UHGV virus genome: UHGV-0321997
DNA length: 35,188 nucleotides
Direction: 5' to 3' (one strand)
From: a virus
The translations under genes and the position numbers were made by a program. Every line of letters starts with the position of its first letter. Positions within the stretch are counted from its first letter, which is position 1. The notes under the pieces were generated by a model. That model had not been told where the DNA came from, did no database searches, and was given only the letters and a program-made list of their open reading frames with translations. Shown piece after piece: positions 12,779-30,108 of the stretch.

Positions 12779-14254
12779 TTACGGCATGTAGTAGTAATAA
12801 ACCTTTAACAAGTCCTTATCCTTTTCGTAGATGATTTTTCCTACAACACTCCTGAGCACATCATTCTTGGTTGTCGCATCAACAGAGTCGGAAGAGAGAA
12901 TATCGTACACATTTTTCACCCTTAGCAGCATGTCCTCGTCATCATCTTTGCTGTTGCTTTTTTCTTCCTTGATTTCGGACAGTTGTTTTTCAAGGTGTTG
13001 TTTTTCTTCTTGTACAGCCTGTTTATTTTCCTTGTATTCTTCCATAGTGTCAATCCCGTTCATGTAGGCTTCTTTGATTCTTTGCAGTTTCACATCGATC
13101 TTTTTGATCTGGTCTTCCAGTATGGTTTTTAAGTCCACAGTGTCATCGGTTTTGGCTTCAATCTTTCGGTATGTGATTTTACCGCTATCAAGCACAGTTT
13201 TGATGGATTCCAGTACTGCAGGTTCTAACTTGATTGAGCTGATAGAGTTGTTCGCCATGCATTTCCCCTTTGTGTATCCATAGCACCTAAAATGAGAGTA
13301 CACTCTTGTGTTATTTCTGATCGTGTTTGCAGTCATTGTCCTGCCGCACGCTGGGCACTTAACGACACCAGACAACCAGTGCTTGTATGTGCTTACTGGT
13401 CTCGAACCACGTGGCCTGTATTCTCTCTTGTATCGTTCCTGTGCTTTATCGAATAGCTCCTTGCTTATGATTGCAGGATGTTCCCCATCGGTGACAATCC
13501 ATTCGCTTTCCGGGCGGATTTCGTTGGATTCATTGATTGTCCGATTCCAACGTATCATACCGCAGTAAGTAGGATTCTGCAAGATATATTCGATAGATCG
13601 GCGTTCAAATTCTTTCCCGTGCGAGGTTTTGAAATTATGCATATTTAAAAGCCTAGCAATTTCAAATATGCCTAAGTTTTCGTTCGCATACTTTTCAAAA
13701 ATCAGTTTCACAATTTCCGCTTCTTCGGGAACGATTACCGGAGGTTCCTTATGAGTCACGATCTTATACCCGAGCGGTGGGCGTGCTTGGTATCCACCTC
13801 TTTCTGCCTTCTCCTTCATTCCTCTGGTTACTTCTCCGGAGAGACGAACGGAATAATATTCGTCCATCCACTCGATGATTCGCTCTATCAGAGAGCCAAA
13901 TGGGCCATCTACCAACGGTTCTGACACGCTTATGACATCCACATTGTGCTTCTTTTTGAGAAGAGACTTGTATACGATACTTTCTTCTTGGTTTCTCGCA
14001 AATCGGCTATATTTCCAGACAAGAATGGCATCTGCTGGATGATCTGATGCTTTTGCGAGTCCAATCATTTTTTGGAACTCCGGGCGCTTATCAGCTTTTC
14101 TTCCAGAAATCCCGACCTCGTAAAAAATCTTAGACACCACATACCCGTGACTCTTTGCGTAATCTTTTAACAGCTTTGCTTGGGAATCTGGGGATAATTC
14201 GTCTTGCTTTCCAGTGGATACACGGACGTATCCAAAAGCATATTGCGTTTCCAT
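12779..14254 (-). CDS. Large serine recombinase (serine integrase).
   Basis: N-terminal resolvase catalytic domain (YVRVSTGKQDELSPDSQ). Recombinase domain, a Cys-rich zinc ribbon (CPACG...C...C) and a C-terminal coiled coil. 491 aa. Confidence 0.9.
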   Translation of the reverse strand: METQYAFGYVRVSTGKQDELSPDSQAKLLKDYAKSHGYVVSKIFYEVGISGRKADKRPEFQKMIGLAKASDHPADAILVWKYSRFARNQEESIVYKSLLKKKHNVDVISVSEPLVDGPFGSLIERIIEWMDEYYSVRLSGEVTRGMKEKAERGGYQARPPLGYKIVTHKEPPVIVPEEAEIVKLIFEKYANENLGIFEIARLLNMHNFKTSHGKEFERRSIEYILQNPTYCGMIRWNRTINESNEIRPESEWIVTDGEHPAIISKELFDKAQERYKREYRPRGSRPVSTYKHWLSGVVKCPACGRTMTANTIRNNTRVYSHFRCYGYTKGKCMANNSISSIKLEPAVLESIKTVLDSGKITYRKIEAKTDDTVDLKTILEDQIKKIDVKLQRIKEAYMNGIDTMEEYKENKQAVQEEKQHLEKQLSEIKEEKSNSKDDDEDMLLRVKNVYDILSSDSVDATTKNDVLRSVVGKIIYEKDKDLLKVYYYYMP

Positions 14255-14341
14255 GTTATCATCTCCTTATTTAATTTTATGCAAAAACGAGTACAAAAAT
14301 AACAGCCAGCACATGAACAAATGTTCTGGATTGTGTAGCTG

Positions 14342-14390
14342 TCCCGAAGATGATACAATATTCTTGGCTTCAGATTGCATATCTTCGGAT
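14342..14390. other. Candidate attP core: about 49-bp imperfect inverted repeat just upstream of the integrase gene.
   Basis: TCCCGAAGATGATACAAT...ATTGCATATCTTCGGAT. The outer 10-bp arms match 9/10. Confidence 0.3.
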
Positions 14391-14435
14391 ATGTAGACCG
14401 TCTCAGTGTTGGTAGCACTGGGGCGGTTTTTTATT

Positions 14436-14966
14436 TTATTGCACGGCGATTTTCTGAGTATCCTTCTTGTTGTCAAACGATATCATATCGGATGCTTCGA
14501 TTGTGAGCTCAGTATCACTCTTCAATTTATATACCTGGCATACTTCAACCGTTCCACCCGGCTGCACTTCATTTATAGCGTAATTGTTCATAGAGTCGTT
14601 CTGTTCTGCCATAATTCCCATTTCACACTCGCCACCGTCCTGAAAACACTGTACGTTTGCAGCAATTCCAGCTGTTGCGTTTTCGTCCGAATTATTTGTA
14701 AAGGTATAATAGTAAAGCAGACATTTATTTCCCTCATAATCATTCGCAAATTCATGTCGTACATATTTTACATTAAATTTTTCTGCTGTAAAATCTATGA
14801 TTCCGTCATCCACTGGCTGAGCTTCTTCTTTTGGCTCTTCTTTCTGCTCTGTTGTTGCTTCTGTCGTTGTCTCGGCGTCTTTGGATGGTTCGGCATCCCC
14901 ACCACATGCTGTAATGGATAATGCCATAGCTCCTACTAATAACATTGCTACAATTTTCTTTTTCAT
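14436..14966 (-). CDS. Lipoprotein (signal peptide plus lipobox ITAC), candidate superinfection-exclusion protein.
   Basis: MKKKIVAMLLVGAMALSITAC followed by an acidic Thr/Glu-rich linker and a globular domain. RBS AGAGGAAAA. Located between the integrase and the repressor on the same strand. Confidence 0.6.
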   Translation of the reverse strand: MKKKIVAMLLVGAMALSITACGGDAEPSKDAETTTEATTEQKEEPKEEAQPVDDGIIDFTAEKFNVKYVRHEFANDYEGNKCLLYYYTFTNNSDENATAGIAANVQCFQDGGECEMGIMAEQNDSMNNYAINEVQPGGTVEVCQVYKLKSDTELTIEASDMISFDNKKDTQKIAVQ

Positions 14967-15047
14967 ATTTTCCTCTTTTCTCCTGTACCTCAACACCACT
15001 TTACTCTATATAAACGCCGAAGCGGTTATATCGTATTATTACCATTA

Positions 15048-15079
15048 TTTACCTGTAGTTTCCAGATCTGGAATATACT
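15048..15079 (+). promoter_or_regulatory. Putative promoter with an overlapping perfect 14-bp palindrome TTCCAGATCTGGAA (operator) upstream of the small XRE gene.
   Basis: Palindrome at 15060-15073; -10 TATACT at 15074-15079. A related palindrome GTCCCAGATATGGGAC at 15294-15309 lies just after the gene. Confidence 0.35.
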
Positions 15080-15093
15080 ACAATAAAACCACT

Positions 15094-15291
15094 ATGAAAA
15101 TACTACTCGATAAGATCATGCTTAAGAAAAATCTATCAGTCCGGCAAGTATCCATTGCGACCGGAATATCAAAATCAACGATTAACCGTATTGCAAACGG
15201 TGAAATATCACCGACAGCCGACACGCTGGAATTGCTTGCCAAGGGCTTAAAAGTCCGAATTTCTGACCTTATCGACTCTCCATATCAATAA
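15094..15291 (+). CDS. Small XRE-family HTH regulator (65 aa), Cro-like.
   Basis: HTH LSVRQVSIATGISKSTINRIANGE. No SD; the ATG lies about 14 nt after a TATACT -10 element, so the transcript is leaderless or short-leadered. Confidence 0.65.
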   Translation: MKILLDKIMLKKNLSVRQVSIATGISKSTINRIANGEISPTADTLELLAKGLKVRISDLIDSPYQ

Positions 15292-15395
15292 GTGTCCCAG
15301 ATATGGGACGATTGTCCATTTTCGCGTAAGTTTCCCGATTTTAGATTGTTAACTTAATAGAGAGGTACATAAGTACCAAAAAATAACAGAACAAA

Positions 15396-15461
15396 TGTTC
15401 GAACAAAATATTGATTTTTATCCACTGAAATAGTATTATATGTTCAGGGATTTCGAACATG
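15396..15461 (+). promoter_or_regulatory. Promoter TTGATT-N17-TATTAT flanked by TGTTCGAACA-type palindromic half-sites.
   Basis: -35 at 15411-15416 and -10 at 15434-15439. Perfect 10-bp palindrome TGTTCGAACA at 15396-15405 and TTCGAACATG at 15452-15461. Confidence 0.4.
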
Positions 15462-15487
15462 TGTTTTTGCAGTTAGGGGGATTGCGA

Positions 15488-15586
15488 AATGGACTACAAA
15501 AAACTTATCATCGAATTGGTCAACAAGTCCAACAATATTGAGGTGTTGGAACTTGTGTACCGATTCTGCATAAAGCTTTTAGGCTA
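15488..15586 (+). CDS. sORF (32 aa, MDYKKLIIELVNKSNNIEVLELVYRFCIKLLG).
   Basis: Very strong RBS AGGGGGA 7 nt before the ATG. Dedicated promoter upstream. Followed directly by a terminator hairpin. Confidence 0.35.
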
Positions 15587-15607
15587 GGGGAAACCCTAGT
15601 CTTTTTT
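15581..15607. terminator. Bidirectional-looking terminator between the sORF (+) and the repressor gene (-).
   Basis: CTAGGG-gaaa-CCCTAG hairpin followed by TCTTTTTT. Confidence 0.5.
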
Positions 15608-15979
15608 AATTAAGCTCTCTGCGAGCTTTTCTAGGACATCCCATTCACTTTCATCCAGCTTTGCAAGAGCTTCTACTAATCTTTTTTTAAATGTATCATT
15701 TTCCATTATAAGATCAGCAGCAAAGTCTGTAATCAACTGGTCTCTTGTTAATTGGATAAACATTTCACCGTTTCCGGTTCTTAACCATTCTTCGTTCACA
15801 TTGAACTCTTTACAAATCAACTTATATAAGGATTCTTTTTGATCTGGGCGTTTCAAGCGATCGTATTCTATATTAACAATAACGCTTTCACTGACGCCAA
15901 GCCTTTCTCCAAAAACTCTCCTGGACATACTTAAGTCTTTTCTTAAGATTTCAATTCTTTCTCCTATATTTAATTCCAA
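15596..15979 (-). CDS. cI-like XRE-family repressor (127 aa, HTH only, no peptidase domain).
   Basis: HTH IGERIEILRKDLSMSRRVFGERLGVSESVIVNIE. TTG start with RBS AAAGGAGGA. Divergent from the early operon. Confidence 0.7.
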   Translation of the reverse strand: MELNIGERIEILRKDLSMSRRVFGERLGVSESVIVNIEYDRLKRPDQKESLYKLICKEFNVNEEWLRTGNGEMFIQLTRDQLITDFAADLIMENDTFKKRLVEALAKLDESEWDVLEKLAESLIKKD

Positions 15980-16020
15980 AAGGCTTCCTCCTTTCTGAAA
16001 TCAGTATATCATTATTATAC

Positions 16021-16111
16021 TTGTTAGTCAACAAGAAAAATATTTAATTTTTTTAAAAATCTTATTGACAAACAAAATAAAACGAGTTATGATTTGTTCA
16101 TCAACAAGAAA
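16021..16111 (+). promoter_or_regulatory. Early (lytic) promoter TTGACA-N17-TATGAT flanked by two 18-bp operator repeats (TTGTTnnnnAACAAGAAA).
   Basis: -35 at 16065-16070 and -10 at 16088-16093. TTGTTAGTCAACAAGAAA at 16021-16038 and TTGTTCATCAACAAGAAA at 16094-16111; each contains a TTGTT-N4-AACAA inverted repeat. Confidence 0.55.
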
Positions 16112-16176
16112 GCAACAACACAAACCAAAACAAAAAAACGCTGACCTATCGGCATGACGGGGAAAAAGAAAGCGAG

Positions 16177-16608
16177 GTGAGAAAGATGTGGGTTTCAAGA
16201 CGATCATGGGATTGCTTGCTGTATCGCATCAAAAAGTGTGAAGATGACATCAAAATTCAGAAGGAAAATACGGAGAATTTAATCAGGAATACTGCAAAAA
16301 AAATTCTTGAACAACCAGAAGAGTTGCGCGAAGAAATTCAGGGGGTTGAACGTATCGAAAAATATATCGATGAGTTTATAGGTCTTGACGAAGAAAATAA
16401 GGATAGAAAGATAAAAAAATTCGATGTATTGAAATCCATTACTAGAGAGAAAGAGTTTTCTAATATGGTATTTGGCTTGATCGAAGTCAAAAAAACTCCT
16501 GAAGCATTTGCAGAACTTCTTGAAGAGGAGATGCCTGAAAAAGAGCTACCTCATTTAAAAGAAGCAGCTCTTAATGGTTATCCGTTGTTTTTCTCTGGCA
16601 TGCAGTGA
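16177..16608 (+). CDS. Hypothetical early protein (143 aa, helical, no HTH).
   Basis: First ORF of the early operon. GTG at 16177 or ATG at 16186 with RBS GAGGTGAG. Confidence 0.5.
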   Translation: MRKMWVSRRSWDCLLYRIKKCEDDIKIQKENTENLIRNTAKKILEQPEELREEIQGVERIEKYIDEFIGLDEENKDRKIKKFDVLKSITREKEFSNMVFGLIEVKKTPEAFAELLEEEMPEKELPHLKEAALNGYPLFFSGMQ

Positions 16609-16835
16609 GCGCATCCGTTTCTTCTGATGTCAAGCATGGAAGAAAAAACAACAGCTTCCTCATAGGAACTGCAATTAAAGATATGTTCGGACTTTATATC
16701 ATTTATGCGGCAGCACGAGGTTTCGCGGTCTAAATCATGGATTTCACCAGTGTTTTTATTAAGCACATAGCGATTGCCGTTAAATGGCGAATTACAACGT
16801 CTCATAAAATCGCTCCTTTCGTAATACTCAGGCAT
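16578..16835 (-). CDS. Cys-rich small protein on the opposite strand (85 aa), hypothetical.
   Basis: ATG-initiated ORF on the - strand lying in an otherwise non-coding 320-bp gap of the + operon. Six Cys, including CC and CAHC. Confidence 0.3.
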   Translation of the reverse strand: MPEYYERSDFMRRCNSPFNGNRYVLNKNTGEIHDLDRETSCCRINDIKSEHIFNCSSYEEAVVFSSMLDIRRNGCAHCMPEKNNG

Positions 16836-16931: not shown

Positions 16932-17645
16932 TTGAACAAATTGCAGCAAAAATTAGATAGCCGAGAAGTGGCTGAAATGGTTGGAAAGGAACACAAGAAC
17001 ATCATCAGAGACATAAGAGGGTATTTAGAAGAATTTTCACAGCTCAATTTTGAGCCGTCAGATTTCTTCCATGAATCTACATATAAGCGTCGCGGAAAAG
17101 AATACCCGTGCTATTTAATCACAAAAGAGGGCTGCGAATTTATCGCCCACAAACTCACAGGAGTCAAAGGGACGGAGTTCACAGCAAAATACATCAAACG
17201 GTTTCATGAGATGGAAAATATCATCAAAGAGCACGTTCCGCAGGGTAAAGAACTTCTTGCACTGGCAGTTCTGGAAGCGCATAAGACCATTGAAGAGCAG
17301 ACAGCGCAGATTGAGGAAATGAAGCCGAAAGCGATATTTGCGGATGCTGTCGCTACCAGTCATACATCCATCTTAATCGGCGATCTGGCGAAGATTTTGA
17401 AACAGAACGGCGTTGAAACAGGGCAGAAGCGCTTATTTGAGTGGTTGCGTGAAAATGGATATCTGAGTAAGAGAAAAGGAACGGAATGGAACTCGCCCAC
17501 ACAGAAATCTATGAATTTAGGGCTGTTTGAAGTGAAAGAGACAACAGCTATGAATCCAGATGGTTCCGTTCGGATTAACAAAACCACAAAAGTAACCGGC
17601 AAAGGACAGCAGTATTTTATCAACAAATTCCTGAATGTAGCATAG
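16932..17645 (+). CDS. Antirepressor (N-terminal Rha/pRha domain plus C-terminal KilA-C/AntB domain).
   Basis: TTG start 8 nt after AGGAGGT. N-terminus SREVAEMVGKEHKNIIRDIR is Rha-like. 237 aa. Confidence 0.75.
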   Translation: MNKLQQKLDSREVAEMVGKEHKNIIRDIRGYLEEFSQLNFEPSDFFHESTYKRRGKEYPCYLITKEGCEFIAHKLTGVKGTEFTAKYIKRFHEMENIIKEHVPQGKELLALAVLEAHKTIEEQTAQIEEMKPKAIFADAVATSHTSILIGDLAKILKQNGVETGQKRLFEWLRENGYLSKRKGTEWNSPTQKSMNLGLFEVKETTAMNPDGSVRINKTTKVTGKGQQYFINKFLNVA

Positions 17646-28805: not shown

Positions 28806-30108
28806 GTACATAATTAACGCTACGCACAGATGGAATATTAAATCCGGTGCGGTACGTTCCGGAAAGTCTTTTGTAGATACTGCTTATATTGTTCCGAAAA
28901 GAATCCGAGATAGAGCTGGACTCCCAGGATTAAATGTAATCATGGGAGTCTCTAAAGAATCTATCGAGAGAAACGTACTCCAACCGATGAGGGAAATCTA
29001 TACCAGTGATCTGATCGGGAACATTAACAATCGGAATGTTGCCAGAGTATGCGGCGAGGATGTCTATTGTCTCGGTGCAGAAAAGGTCAGTCAAGTCGCA
29101 AAGATACAGGGAGCGTCCATCAAGTATTGTTACGGGGATGAGATTGCAAAGTGGAACAAAGAAGTCTTCCAGATGTTAAAATCCCGTCTCGATAAGACAT
29201 ACTCCTGCTTTGATGGAGCTTGCAACCCAGAGCATCCAACGCATTGGCTCAAAGAGTTCATTGACAATGTAGAGTTGGACATCTATCTCCAAAAGTACAC
29301 CATATTCGATAATCCATTTCTGGATCCAGAATTTGTCAAGCAACTCTGCAAGGAATATGAGGGTACAATCTACTATGACCGTCTCATTCTTGGATTATGG
29401 AAAAGAGCTGACGGATCGATTTACAAGCGGTTTGCAGACAATCCAGAAGCGTTCCGGTGCGAAATCGTGGATAATATCTCGCAGGAATCAGAGTATAAGC
29501 AATTCCGAAAAGAGGATATCACATCAATCGAGATTGGATTGGACTTTGGTGGCAATCAATCCGGTCATTCATTCGTTGCCAGAGGGTATACGGATAATTA
29601 CAGAGATGTAATTGCGCTAAAATCACGTAGAATCACGGCGAAAGATGAAAAAGAAGACATCGACAGCAATAGGTTGAATGAGTTGTTTTGCGAATTTATC
29701 AGAGAAGTAATAGAACAATATTCGGTATGCGTGAAAAGCGGTGATTACGTGCAGTATTGTAACGTAGAGTCCGTATTCTGGGATAATGCAGAGACAGTGC
29801 TTGGTAATTCCATCCGAAACGCTGTGGAAAAGGAGTTTCCGTGGATCGCTGTCAAACCAGCAAAGAAAAGACCAATCAACGACAGGATCAGATGCACCGT
29901 CAAGCTCATGGGGGCTGGGCGGTTTTTTATTACAAAAGACTGCGAATCTCTGGAAACTGCTTTTTCGGATGCAGTTTGGGACAAAGAAGCTGTTGGGAAA
30001 GATGAGCGTCTGGATGACGGCAGTACTGACATTGACAGCTTGGATGCGTTTGAGTACACGATCGAACGCGACATGAAATACCTAATCGAAGAGGTGGAAG
30101 ATGTTTGA
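28774..30108 (+). CDS. Terminase large subunit (PBSX family).
   Basis: Walker A GAVRSGKS near the N-terminus. 444 aa. The nuclease domain has its acidic residues in the C-terminal half. Confidence 0.9.
   Translation: MTMQLSKKQNEYIINATHRWNIKSGAVRSGKSFVDTAYIVPKRIRDRAGLPGLNVIMGVSKESIERNVLQPMREIYTSDLIGNINNRNVARVCGEDVYCLGAEKVSQVAKIQGASIKYCYGDEIAKWNKEVFQMLKSRLDKTYSCFDGACNPEHPTHWLKEFIDNVELDIYLQKYTIFDNPFLDPEFVKQLCKEYEGTIYYDRLILGLWKRADGSIYKRFADNPEAFRCEIVDNISQESEYKQFRKEDITSIEIGLDFGGNQSGHSFVARGYTDNYRDVIALKSRRITAKDEKEDIDSNRLNELFCEFIREVIEQYSVCVKSGDYVQYCNVESVFWDNAETVLGNSIRNAVEKEFPWIAVKPAKKRPINDRIRCTVKLMGAGRFFITKDCESLETAFSDAVWDKEAVGKDERLDDGSTDIDSLDAFEYTIERDMKYLIEEVEDV

Follow-up and report, generated by a model that had tools for sequence, protein, structure and literature searches.

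The stretch of DNA analysed here (the window) is the 35,188-nt virus genome UHGV-0321997, which belongs to a temperate phage of Mediterraneibacter (Ruminococcus) gnavus. This gut commensal is abundant and has been linked to inflammatory bowel disease, and its phages are being isolated for microbiome editing. In the lysogeny module of the phage, a small open reading frame (sORF) of 32 aa (MDYKKLIIELVNKSNNIEVLELVYRFCIKLLG; 15489-15587, + strand) converges on the gene of the 127-aa phage repressor (15596-15979, - strand, TTG start, stop codon at 15596-15598), and its promoter lies between two sites that fit the LexA operator of Gram-positive bacteria. The region matches RG-TP1, phiRM10, phiRg507T2, phiRg519T2 and others, all of them temperate phages of R. 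gnavus. We propose that the sORF probably encodes a mini antirepressor of the SinI/AimX type, a predicted helix-loop-helix peptide that would be freed from LexA repression by the SOS response and would act on the adjoining repressor. The evidence is computational throughout: the reality of the genes, synteny, conservation of the LexA boxes, the domain layout of the repressor and the resemblance of the sORF to the repressor C-terminus were computed, and from these we infer LexA binding in the M. gnavus host, binding of the peptide to the repressor, and induction.

All six sequence features that a preliminary description, made from the letters alone, had listed between the lipoprotein and repressor genes were found in place, and the sORF proved to be a real gene, separately promoted and terminated. 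Its promoter, TTGATT-N17-TATTAT (15411-15439, + strand; inferred transcription start ~15446), is followed by the strong Shine-Dalgarno (SD) sequence AGGGGGA (15475-15481), which stands 7 nt before the ATG and is invariant in five aligned phages; a G-rich SD is also kept in diverged sORF families. The intrinsic terminator (15581-15608) consists of a 9-bp stem (15581-15602, -15.1 kcal/mol) with a GAAA loop and a T6 tract, and overlaps the stop codons of both the sORF and the repressor gene. The fold of the sORF 5'-untranslated region was not significantly more stable than that of shuffled sequence.

From ~15380 up to and including the first ten codons of the sORF, the five aligned phages hardly differ; a mosaic junction then follows within the gene, after about codon 10. 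Each of the five carries a homologue (MDYKSKIIELINGISNTAKLEYLYYVIRSFLKG) that is convergent on the repressor gene and ends 1-9 nt from its stop codon. Searches with back-translated sequences yielded 53 viral loci in one scan and 80 in the next, in which 264 candidates had passed the filter, a HMMER scan of 1.8 billion representatives added 12 further members, and homologues at the same position are present in 137 viral loci (individual loci are given below by L numbers). The exact peptide is encoded on 390 contigs, and at least 1000 carry a 38-aa type; the label is 'hypothetical protein' in every case, and no model in Pfam, PHROGs, NCBIfam or PADLOC matches the sORF. Variation is greatest at third codon positions, and the ratio of nonsynonymous to synonymous polymorphism (pN/pS) is 0.17 in the 32-aa class and 0.09-0.19 across the 32-, 36- and 38-aa classes; it is 0.62 in the 33-aa class, which comprises only 4 sequences. 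This pattern indicates that the sORF is under purifying selection and that its functional product is the peptide. The AlphaFold2 (AF2) model has two helices, residues 3-13 and 17-31, with a predicted local distance difference test (pLDDT) score of 83; a signal peptide is absent, and the hairpin of helices in the model is amphipathic and soluble, not a membrane helix. In L134, the intact sORF is preceded by a decayed copy (MDYRKQMLYKKKNI) and, further upstream at -213, by a perfect LexA box (the box and the decayed copy span ~213 to 120 nt upstream of the intact sORF), a relic of duplication and subsequent decay within the family.

The preliminary description had taken the half-sites flanking the sORF promoter, TGTTCGAACA (15397-15406) and TTCGAACATG (15452-15461), for operators of a phage helix-turn-helix (HTH) protein. 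Read in another register, they are parts of AGAACAAATGTTCG (box 1, 15388-15401), which lies 10 nt upstream of the -35 and has 1 mismatch to CGAAC-N4-GTTCG, and of CGAACATGTGTTTT (box 2, 15454-15467), which has the GAAC-N4-GTTT form and covers ~+8 to +21 of the sORF transcript. Both fit the Gram-positive LexA (Cheo/SOS) operator CGAAC-N4-GTTCG, so these palindromes look like host LexA boxes and not phage operators. Across the 35 kb of the window the pattern GAAC-N4-GTTY is found just three times, each time in a promoter region of the lysogeny module: two flank the sORF promoter and the third (TGAACAAATGTTCT, 14314-14327, core 14315-14326) lies 61 nt upstream of the start codon of the serine integrase gene int (12779-14254, - strand). 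The LexA boxes of the window thus belong to the sORF and int genes only. The B. subtilis LexA operator is GAAC-N4-GTTC, and the clostridial lexA and recA operators have the form GAAC-N4-GTTT (PMC4234289). In an electrophoretic mobility shift assay, B. subtilis LexA bound gut-metagenome sites whose core, GAACAAATGTTC, is identical to that of box 1, one of them 33 nt upstream of a phage integrase gene (PMC3998124 supplement).

The behaviour of these sites among the relatives carries more weight than their presence in one genome. Box 1 is invariant in the relatives, and diverged relatives of the sORF carry other consensus promoters at the same place; in 8 of 9 such promoter families a LexA box has been kept or re-created in a new position. 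Thus, the promoter of L023-26 has GAACAAATGTTC plus CGAAAGTTTGTTCG, the L027 family has CAAACAAATGTTCG directly after the -10, and L055/56 have CGAACAAACGTTTG between the -35 and the -10, while the L074 and L100 families, from 45-kb phages, have TTGCCA-17-TGGTATAAT followed by CGAACTAATGTTCG at ~+2 to +15; the box of L042 has one mismatch. The density of strict boxes is 5.7 per kb within the 160 nt that precede the sORF and 0.061 per kb elsewhere in the same loci (1.46 Mb), a ~94-fold ratio that is descriptive and not a P value because the loci are related, the independent units being the 8 of 9 promoter families. These data suggest that the sORF promoter is very probably under the control of host LexA. 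A host regulator would also explain why the promoter has been kept across phages of different immunity. In nearly all loci of the R. gnavus type (L001-L022), a box lies ~47-61 nt upstream of int, whether the integrase is of the serine or the tyrosine type, which suggests that int is under SOS control as well.

Three predicted operators of the repressor, CTTGTT-N4-AACAAG (16020-16035, 16061-16076 and 16093-16108), lie over the divergent promoters TTGACA-17-TATGAT (+) and TTGACT-17-TATACT (-). This motif has 6 matches against 2.1 expected, a number that no shuffle reached. The operators differ from every palindrome in the preliminary description, and none is near the sORF promoter or the promoter of the neighbouring XRE gene. 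A half-operator within the sORF, TTGGTCAACAAG, was dismissed, because the full site has 3 mismatches and the sequence is the same under other repressor HTH types. In Pfam the repressor matches HTH_19 only, and neither Pfam nor the AF2 model, in which the HTH is followed by three C-terminal helices, gives any sign of an S24 peptidase or autocleavage domain. The HTH (residues 1-70) is modelled with a pLDDT of ~90 and the three helices (79-89, 95-106 and 110-125) with one of 52-65; such low C-terminal values are expected if the domain folds on oligomerization. The identical repressor protein is present on 873 Mediterraneibacter contigs.

The other repressors beside the sORF share this architecture: they have 110-136 aa, with an HTH, a conserved 'NVNEEWLRTG.GEMF' linker, a helical C-terminal domain and no S24 domain. 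The sORF is convergent with and abuts such a repressor in at least 11 repressor families. The repressor genes of the window and of L005-L026 are mosaic, with a single constant C-terminal domain combined with N-terminal HTH domains of at least three unrelated kinds, and the type of the sORF tracks the C-terminal domain, not the HTH domain or the type of integrase. The best sequence relative in the Protein Data Bank (PDB) that reaches beyond the HTH is 9sf2_A, the repressor of phage phi106 with its antagonist AimX. The single repressor sequence matches it with E 0.03 and an eight-member family profile with E 1e-6 over positions 5-109; the terminal helix-loop-helix of the repressor is not clearly aligned. 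Among fold matches of the repressor model, the SinR/SinI complex of B. subtilis (PDB 1B0N) ranks sixth.

The sORF was also compared with the repressor itself. When a profile of 16 sORFs was aligned by HHalign with the last 45 residues of 11 cognate repressors, a match was obtained over 36 columns that span the whole length of the sORF (Prob 65%, P 5.9e-5, score 22.5). It places Y3-K-K-x-I-I-E of the sORF on F97-K-K-R-L-V-E of the repressor and sORF helix 2 on repressor helix 110-125, the same register as in an earlier, narrower comparison. None of 200 column shuffles reached 22.5 (maximum 14.4); the score fell to 9.8-10.2 when either profile was reversed and to 12.0 when the two sORF helices were swapped. 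In the AF2 models, the helix/loop/helix lengths are 11/3/15 in the sORF and 12/3/16 in the last helix-loop-helix of the repressor. Searching PDB chains, including 9sf2, with the sORF profile returned designed helical repeat proteins only.

Taking these results together, the following mechanism may be envisaged. In the lysogen, host LexA would occupy the two SOS boxes and silence the sORF promoter, and the third box would place LexA in front of int. Since the repressor lacks self-cleavage, RecA would have no direct route to its inactivation, and a non-cleavable repressor of this kind needs some other link to the SOS response. On DNA damage, LexA cleavage would allow transcription of the sORF, whose strong SD would ensure efficient translation, and int would be derepressed in parallel. 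The peptide, as a free-standing copy of the last two helices of the repressor, would pair with the repressor C-terminal domain in place of a second repressor subunit, giving a heteromer instead of a homodimer. Repressor oligomerization and binding at CTTGTT-N4-AACAAG would then be lost, and the early operon would be derepressed. Mitomycin C had been used to obtain RG-TP1, a relative with the same module (PMC13435783). We consider it probable that the sORF is such a LexA-derepressed antirepressor, and of the four functions that the preliminary description had offered for it, the anti-repressor peptide is the one favoured by the evidence.

Several observations weigh against this interpretation. 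The similarity between the sORF and the C-terminal domain appears modest and shows no cognate preference (mean score 24.5 for cognate and 25.7 for non-cognate pairs), which points to a shared helix-loop-helix type and not to a recent duplication in each phage. The co-variation of the two could arise by linkage alone, because the sORF adjoins the 3' end of the repressor gene. No similarity could be detected between the sORF and the AimX chain or curated families. As to LexA, the motif is taken from B. subtilis and clostridia and that of M. gnavus itself may differ; box 1, upstream of the -35, is in an unusual place for a repressor site, and in phages without the XRE gene it also adjoins the divergent promoter of the neighbouring accessory gene (moron). 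One family of the phage type (L053) has no box within 220 nt of the sORF. Finally, integrative elements of 17-20 kb contain near-identical sORFs but neither a LexA box nor an adjacent repressor gene, a context that the proposed mechanism does not explain unless those copies act in trans.

These elements (L043-L054, L057-L073 and L108) encode a Tn916-type tyrosine integrase, a Rha protein and a 1192-aa protein, and their sORF is ~86% identical to that of the 45-kb phages (L074 family). Tandem sORF paralogs lie just upstream of int in them (L044, 2400-2611; L058, 10001-10108). Two further open reading frames of L044 next to these paralogs, 1810-2100 and 2055-2396, show the same two-helix motif by eye. 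One could go further and suppose that the MDYKK-type peptides are a large unannotated family of repressor-tail mimics that serves as a general SOS trigger of Lachnospiraceae prophages and is traded between elements, and that the 17-20 kb elements could use their copies in trans to induce or sense a resident helper prophage in a satellite-like manner, with the XRE gene adding a second, SOS-independent input; we regard this wider scheme as speculative and rather doubtful.

The XRE gene forms a separate unit. A five-phage alignment delimits an insertion/deletion cassette at ~15034-15380 (+ strand) that comprises a promoter, the gene, a 3' palindrome and a hairpin; of these five phages only that of the window and RG-TP1 have it, and it is cleanly missing from the other three. 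Of 57 related loci, 20 carry the gene, at a constant position of -393 to -396 relative to the ATG of the sORF, and it recurs in L138-141 beside quite different sORFs and repressors. The 'inserted mini-cassette' of the preliminary description is therefore an apt term for the XRE unit but not for the sORF, which belongs to the core of the immunity region in every relative, unlike the optional XRE gene. The latter (15094-15291, + strand) encodes 65 aa with a match to HTH_3/HTH_26 (E 2e-12), has no SD, and begins 14 nt after the -10 TATACT (15074-15079), all as had been described. In RG-TP1 its reading frame is intact but unannotated. A homology search found 392 relatives; almost all of the 120 that were listed, which come from M. 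gnavus and other Lachnospiraceae, have a length of exactly 65 aa. An SD is missing from every variant, and the ATG follows a -10-like hexamer at a distance of 9-14 nt. An mRNA with no leader, or almost none, is therefore plausible, and XRE is a genuine small HTH gene, probably leaderless or with a very short leader.

Two palindromes flank the XRE gene, and the exact matches of T[TC]CCA-N4-TGG[AG]A in the window are these two sites only. The first, TTCCAGATCTGGAA (15060-15073), directly abuts the -10; it is not conserved, as close relatives keep only the TTCC..GGAA arms and L023-26, L138 and L139 lack it. The second, GTCCCAGATATGGGAC (GTCCCA-N4-TGGGAC, 15294-15309), begins 2 nt past the XRE stop codon, as had been noted, and folds with -12 kcal/mol without a U tract; its GTCCCA and TGGGAC arms are invariant in all XRE-bearing loci and its centre varies, consistent with either an XRE site or an RNA hairpin. 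The stability of the XRE 3' hairpin was not significantly above that of shuffled sequence. At the right edge of the cassette lies a further hairpin, GGTAC-ATAA-GTACC (15364-15377, z = -7.2), for which relatives show the compensatory variants GGCAA..TTGCC and AGGAAA..TTTCCT. The hairpins at 15364-15377 and 15294-15309 also score as weak - strand terminators and could protect the XRE gene against transcription that runs on from the repressor gene. The predicted -35 of the divergent moron promoter overlaps TTCCAGATCTGGAA, and both autoregulation and control of that promoter are plausible roles for XRE, which is a separate, optional and probably self-regulated accessory regulator inserted just upstream of the sORF.

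The preliminary description had also observed that the first gene of the early operon (16177-16608, 143 aa) encodes no HTH and had suggested that XRE is a displaced Cro-like protein. The observation holds, as this gene has no Pfam match and a weak PHROG match only, and no Cro-like gene is found in the usual position in the window. The suggestion was rejected: RG-TP1 has XRE together with a canonical Cro; the same XRE is paired with at least four unrelated repressor HTH domains, so that there is no co-variation; XRE is missing from L020, which has the repressor type of the window, and from L022, which has the same repressor C-terminal domain on a different HTH; and XRE is separated from the early operon by the repressor gene, with no CTTGTT-N4-AACAAG near it.

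A second way to read the locus is to take XRE and the sORF as one module of a transcription factor and a small open reading frame (TF-smORF), in which XRE acts near the sORF promoter and supplies a second, SOS-independent input. Precedents are the TF-smORF modules of Vibrio phages (PMC10432266) and the action of AimR on aimX, and the fixed offset in 20 loci, the recurrence of XRE next to different sORFs in L138-141, and the conserved palindrome and 3' sequence between XRE and the sORF promoter agree with such a module. However, many phages that share the sORF and its promoter lack XRE (L002-4, L020, L022 and all families from L027 on). The ~100 nt around the sORF -35 contain no palindrome of the XRE type, the palindrome upstream of XRE is not conserved, and the two genes are co-directional and not divergent. 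A joint module therefore seems doubtful to us.

It is also conceivable that the sORF is induced by the SOS response but stands outside the switch, as a small effector directed at the host that inhibits division, acts as a toxin or serves some other moron-like purpose. LexA boxes tell when the sORF is made and not what it does, the family members in the 17-20 kb elements have no adjacent repressor, and it has no family annotation. Nevertheless, this explanation is unlikely, given that the sORF abuts a convergent repressor gene in at least 11 repressor families, resembles the repressor C-terminal helix-loop-helix from end to end, lacks a signal peptide and is modelled as a soluble hairpin, and that repressors of this kind require an SOS-linked inactivator. 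For a toxin or immunity element, which the preliminary description had also considered, no evidence was found; the candidate was set aside in view of the soluble amphipathic model, and nothing points to a partner immunity gene.

The convergent arrangement raises the question of whether the transcript is the effector, with convergent or antisense transcription from the LexA-controlled promoter lowering repressor expression, as with lambda oop or in the original aimX-RNA idea. In phages of the phiRM10 type, in which the stop codons of the sORF and repressor genes are 1 nt apart and no terminator lies between them, this would be feasible. In the window, however, a strong terminator ends the sORF transcript at the repressor stop codon, and the purifying selection on the coding sequence and the conserved SD speak for a translated product; in phi106 and phiW23, recoded and stop-codon alleles of aimX revealed that the protein, not antisense RNA, is what acts (10.1101/2025.11.23.689978). 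An RNA effector is accordingly quite improbable. Least credible of all, and very improbable indeed, is that the sORF is a recombination directionality factor (Xis) for the integrase, as had been proposed, and/or that XRE is a displaced Cro: the paralogs directly upstream of the tyrosine integrase gene in the 17-20 kb elements, the LexA box of int and the first early gene without an HTH would fit, but near-identical sORFs accompany serine integrases as well as unrelated tyrosine integrases, and the distribution of XRE argues against Cro as set out above.

The remaining features of the region bear less directly on the antirepressor. Within the repressed early operon lies a Rha/KilAC antirepressor-like gene (16932-17645) without a LexA box, and an 85-aa gene on the strand opposite to the first early gene (16578-16835), whose end it overlaps, matches phrog_28292 (E 1e-30, function unknown). 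The moron of the window is a DUF5067 lipoprotein gene (14436-14969, - strand). Just upstream of that gene is a hairpin, TATATAAACGCCGAAGCGGTTATATC (15007-15032), which is kept in all relatives, although the moron downstream of it differs between them (DUF5067 lipoprotein, sie protein or a 343-aa protein); the hairpin may be a 5' mRNA stem-loop or a module boundary. A Rfam scan of 14300-16700 gave no credible RNA family. Palindromes as such are at chance level in the window: 3 perfect 14-mers were counted where 2.3 are expected, and for 16-mers with no more than one mismatch the count is 15 and the expectation 13.2; their meaning must therefore come from the relatives. A palindrome at 29318 resembles O1 yet lies within a 444-aa coding sequence and was dismissed as chance.

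Published descriptions of M. gnavus phage genomes list only 'Cro/CI-type repressors' and do not state the mechanism of induction; papers on R. gnavus phages mention neither LexA nor an antirepressor, and a literature search found no paper describing the sORF family. If our interpretation is right, a gene of 32 codons that most annotations skip or call hypothetical is the switch that links DNA damage, from sources such as antibiotics, inflammation and genotoxins, to prophage induction. It would also mean that very small antirepressors of the AimX/SinI type are not peculiar to the arbitrium phages of Bacillus but are a general solution in Firmicutes, and that they can be sought by a simple rule: a LexA box and a strong SD before a reading frame of 30-40 codons that is convergent on a short HTH repressor gene.

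The regulatory logic has counterparts in other phages. Tum of 186, GfoA/GfhA of the Gifsy phages (PMC3121763), AntC of N15 and Sar of SPbeta/phi3T (10.1101/2025.11.27.690993) likewise combine a non-cleavable repressor with an antirepressor that is held by LexA and freed by the SOS response. In sequence and fold, these proteins are unrelated to the sORF product and they are larger; Sar is a DNA mimic that binds an integrase-like repressor, and the enterobacterial cases use Gram-negative LexA motifs, unlike the window. In the TF-smORF modules of Vibrio and other linear plasmid phages, a small, unannotated protein without homologues inactivates the phage repressor, and an XRE-type factor can adjoin (Silpe et al. 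2023, PMC10432266). Those modules are SOS-independent, and their transcription factor is divergent from the smORF and required for its expression, whereas in the window the sORF promoter has LexA boxes and XRE is co-directional and dispensable. SinI-SinR of B. subtilis (PDB 1B0N) offers a structural parallel, namely a small helical antagonist that is similar to the helical hook at the C-terminus of an XRE-type repressor and would take the place of a repressor subunit. It differs in serving a biofilm switch and not a phage switch, in the lack of SOS control and in size (57 aa for SinI, 32 aa here), and the Pfam SinI domain (PF08671) matched neither the sORF nor the repressor at E <= 0.1.

The closest known system is AimX-AimC of the 'extended arbitrium' phages of Bacillus, especially phi106 (Kabel et al., 10.1101/2025.11.23.689978; PDB 9SF2). 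In phi106-type phages, a 29-aa AimX is encoded just downstream of a LexA site and convergently with the short repressor AimC; AimX binds the C-terminal domain of AimC and blocks dimer and tetramer formation as well as DNA binding, which its authors likened to SinI-SinR (10.1101/2025.11.23.689978). In AimX-AimC as here, a tiny helical reading frame (29-80 aa) is convergent on, and abuts or overlaps the 3' end of, the gene of a short HTH repressor (80-140 aa) without an autocleavage domain, and in phi106 too the LexA site is just upstream of the small gene. AimC has the same succession of HTH, linker and helical C-terminal oligomerization domain as the repressor of the window, this last domain of AimC being the part that the peptide occupies, and the match of our repressor family profile to the phi106 repressor extends beyond the HTH, as given above. 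There are also differences. The window has no aimR or aimP (an AimR model gave an HTH match only, with E 0.03 against a cutoff of 70 bits), and what lies upstream of the sORF is the 65-aa XRE gene or, in other phages, nothing. The sORF has no sequence similarity to AimX, although AimX proteins are highly divergent among themselves; there are two LexA boxes at the sORF plus one at int; and the host is a gut member of the Lachnospiraceae, not Bacillus. Unlike AimX, moreover, the peptide of the window is detectably similar to the terminal helix-loop-helix of its own repressor. These data suggest that the sORF may represent a new sequence family of LexA-controlled mini antirepressors of the AimX/SinI type, maintained without arbitrium genes in abundant phages of the human gut.

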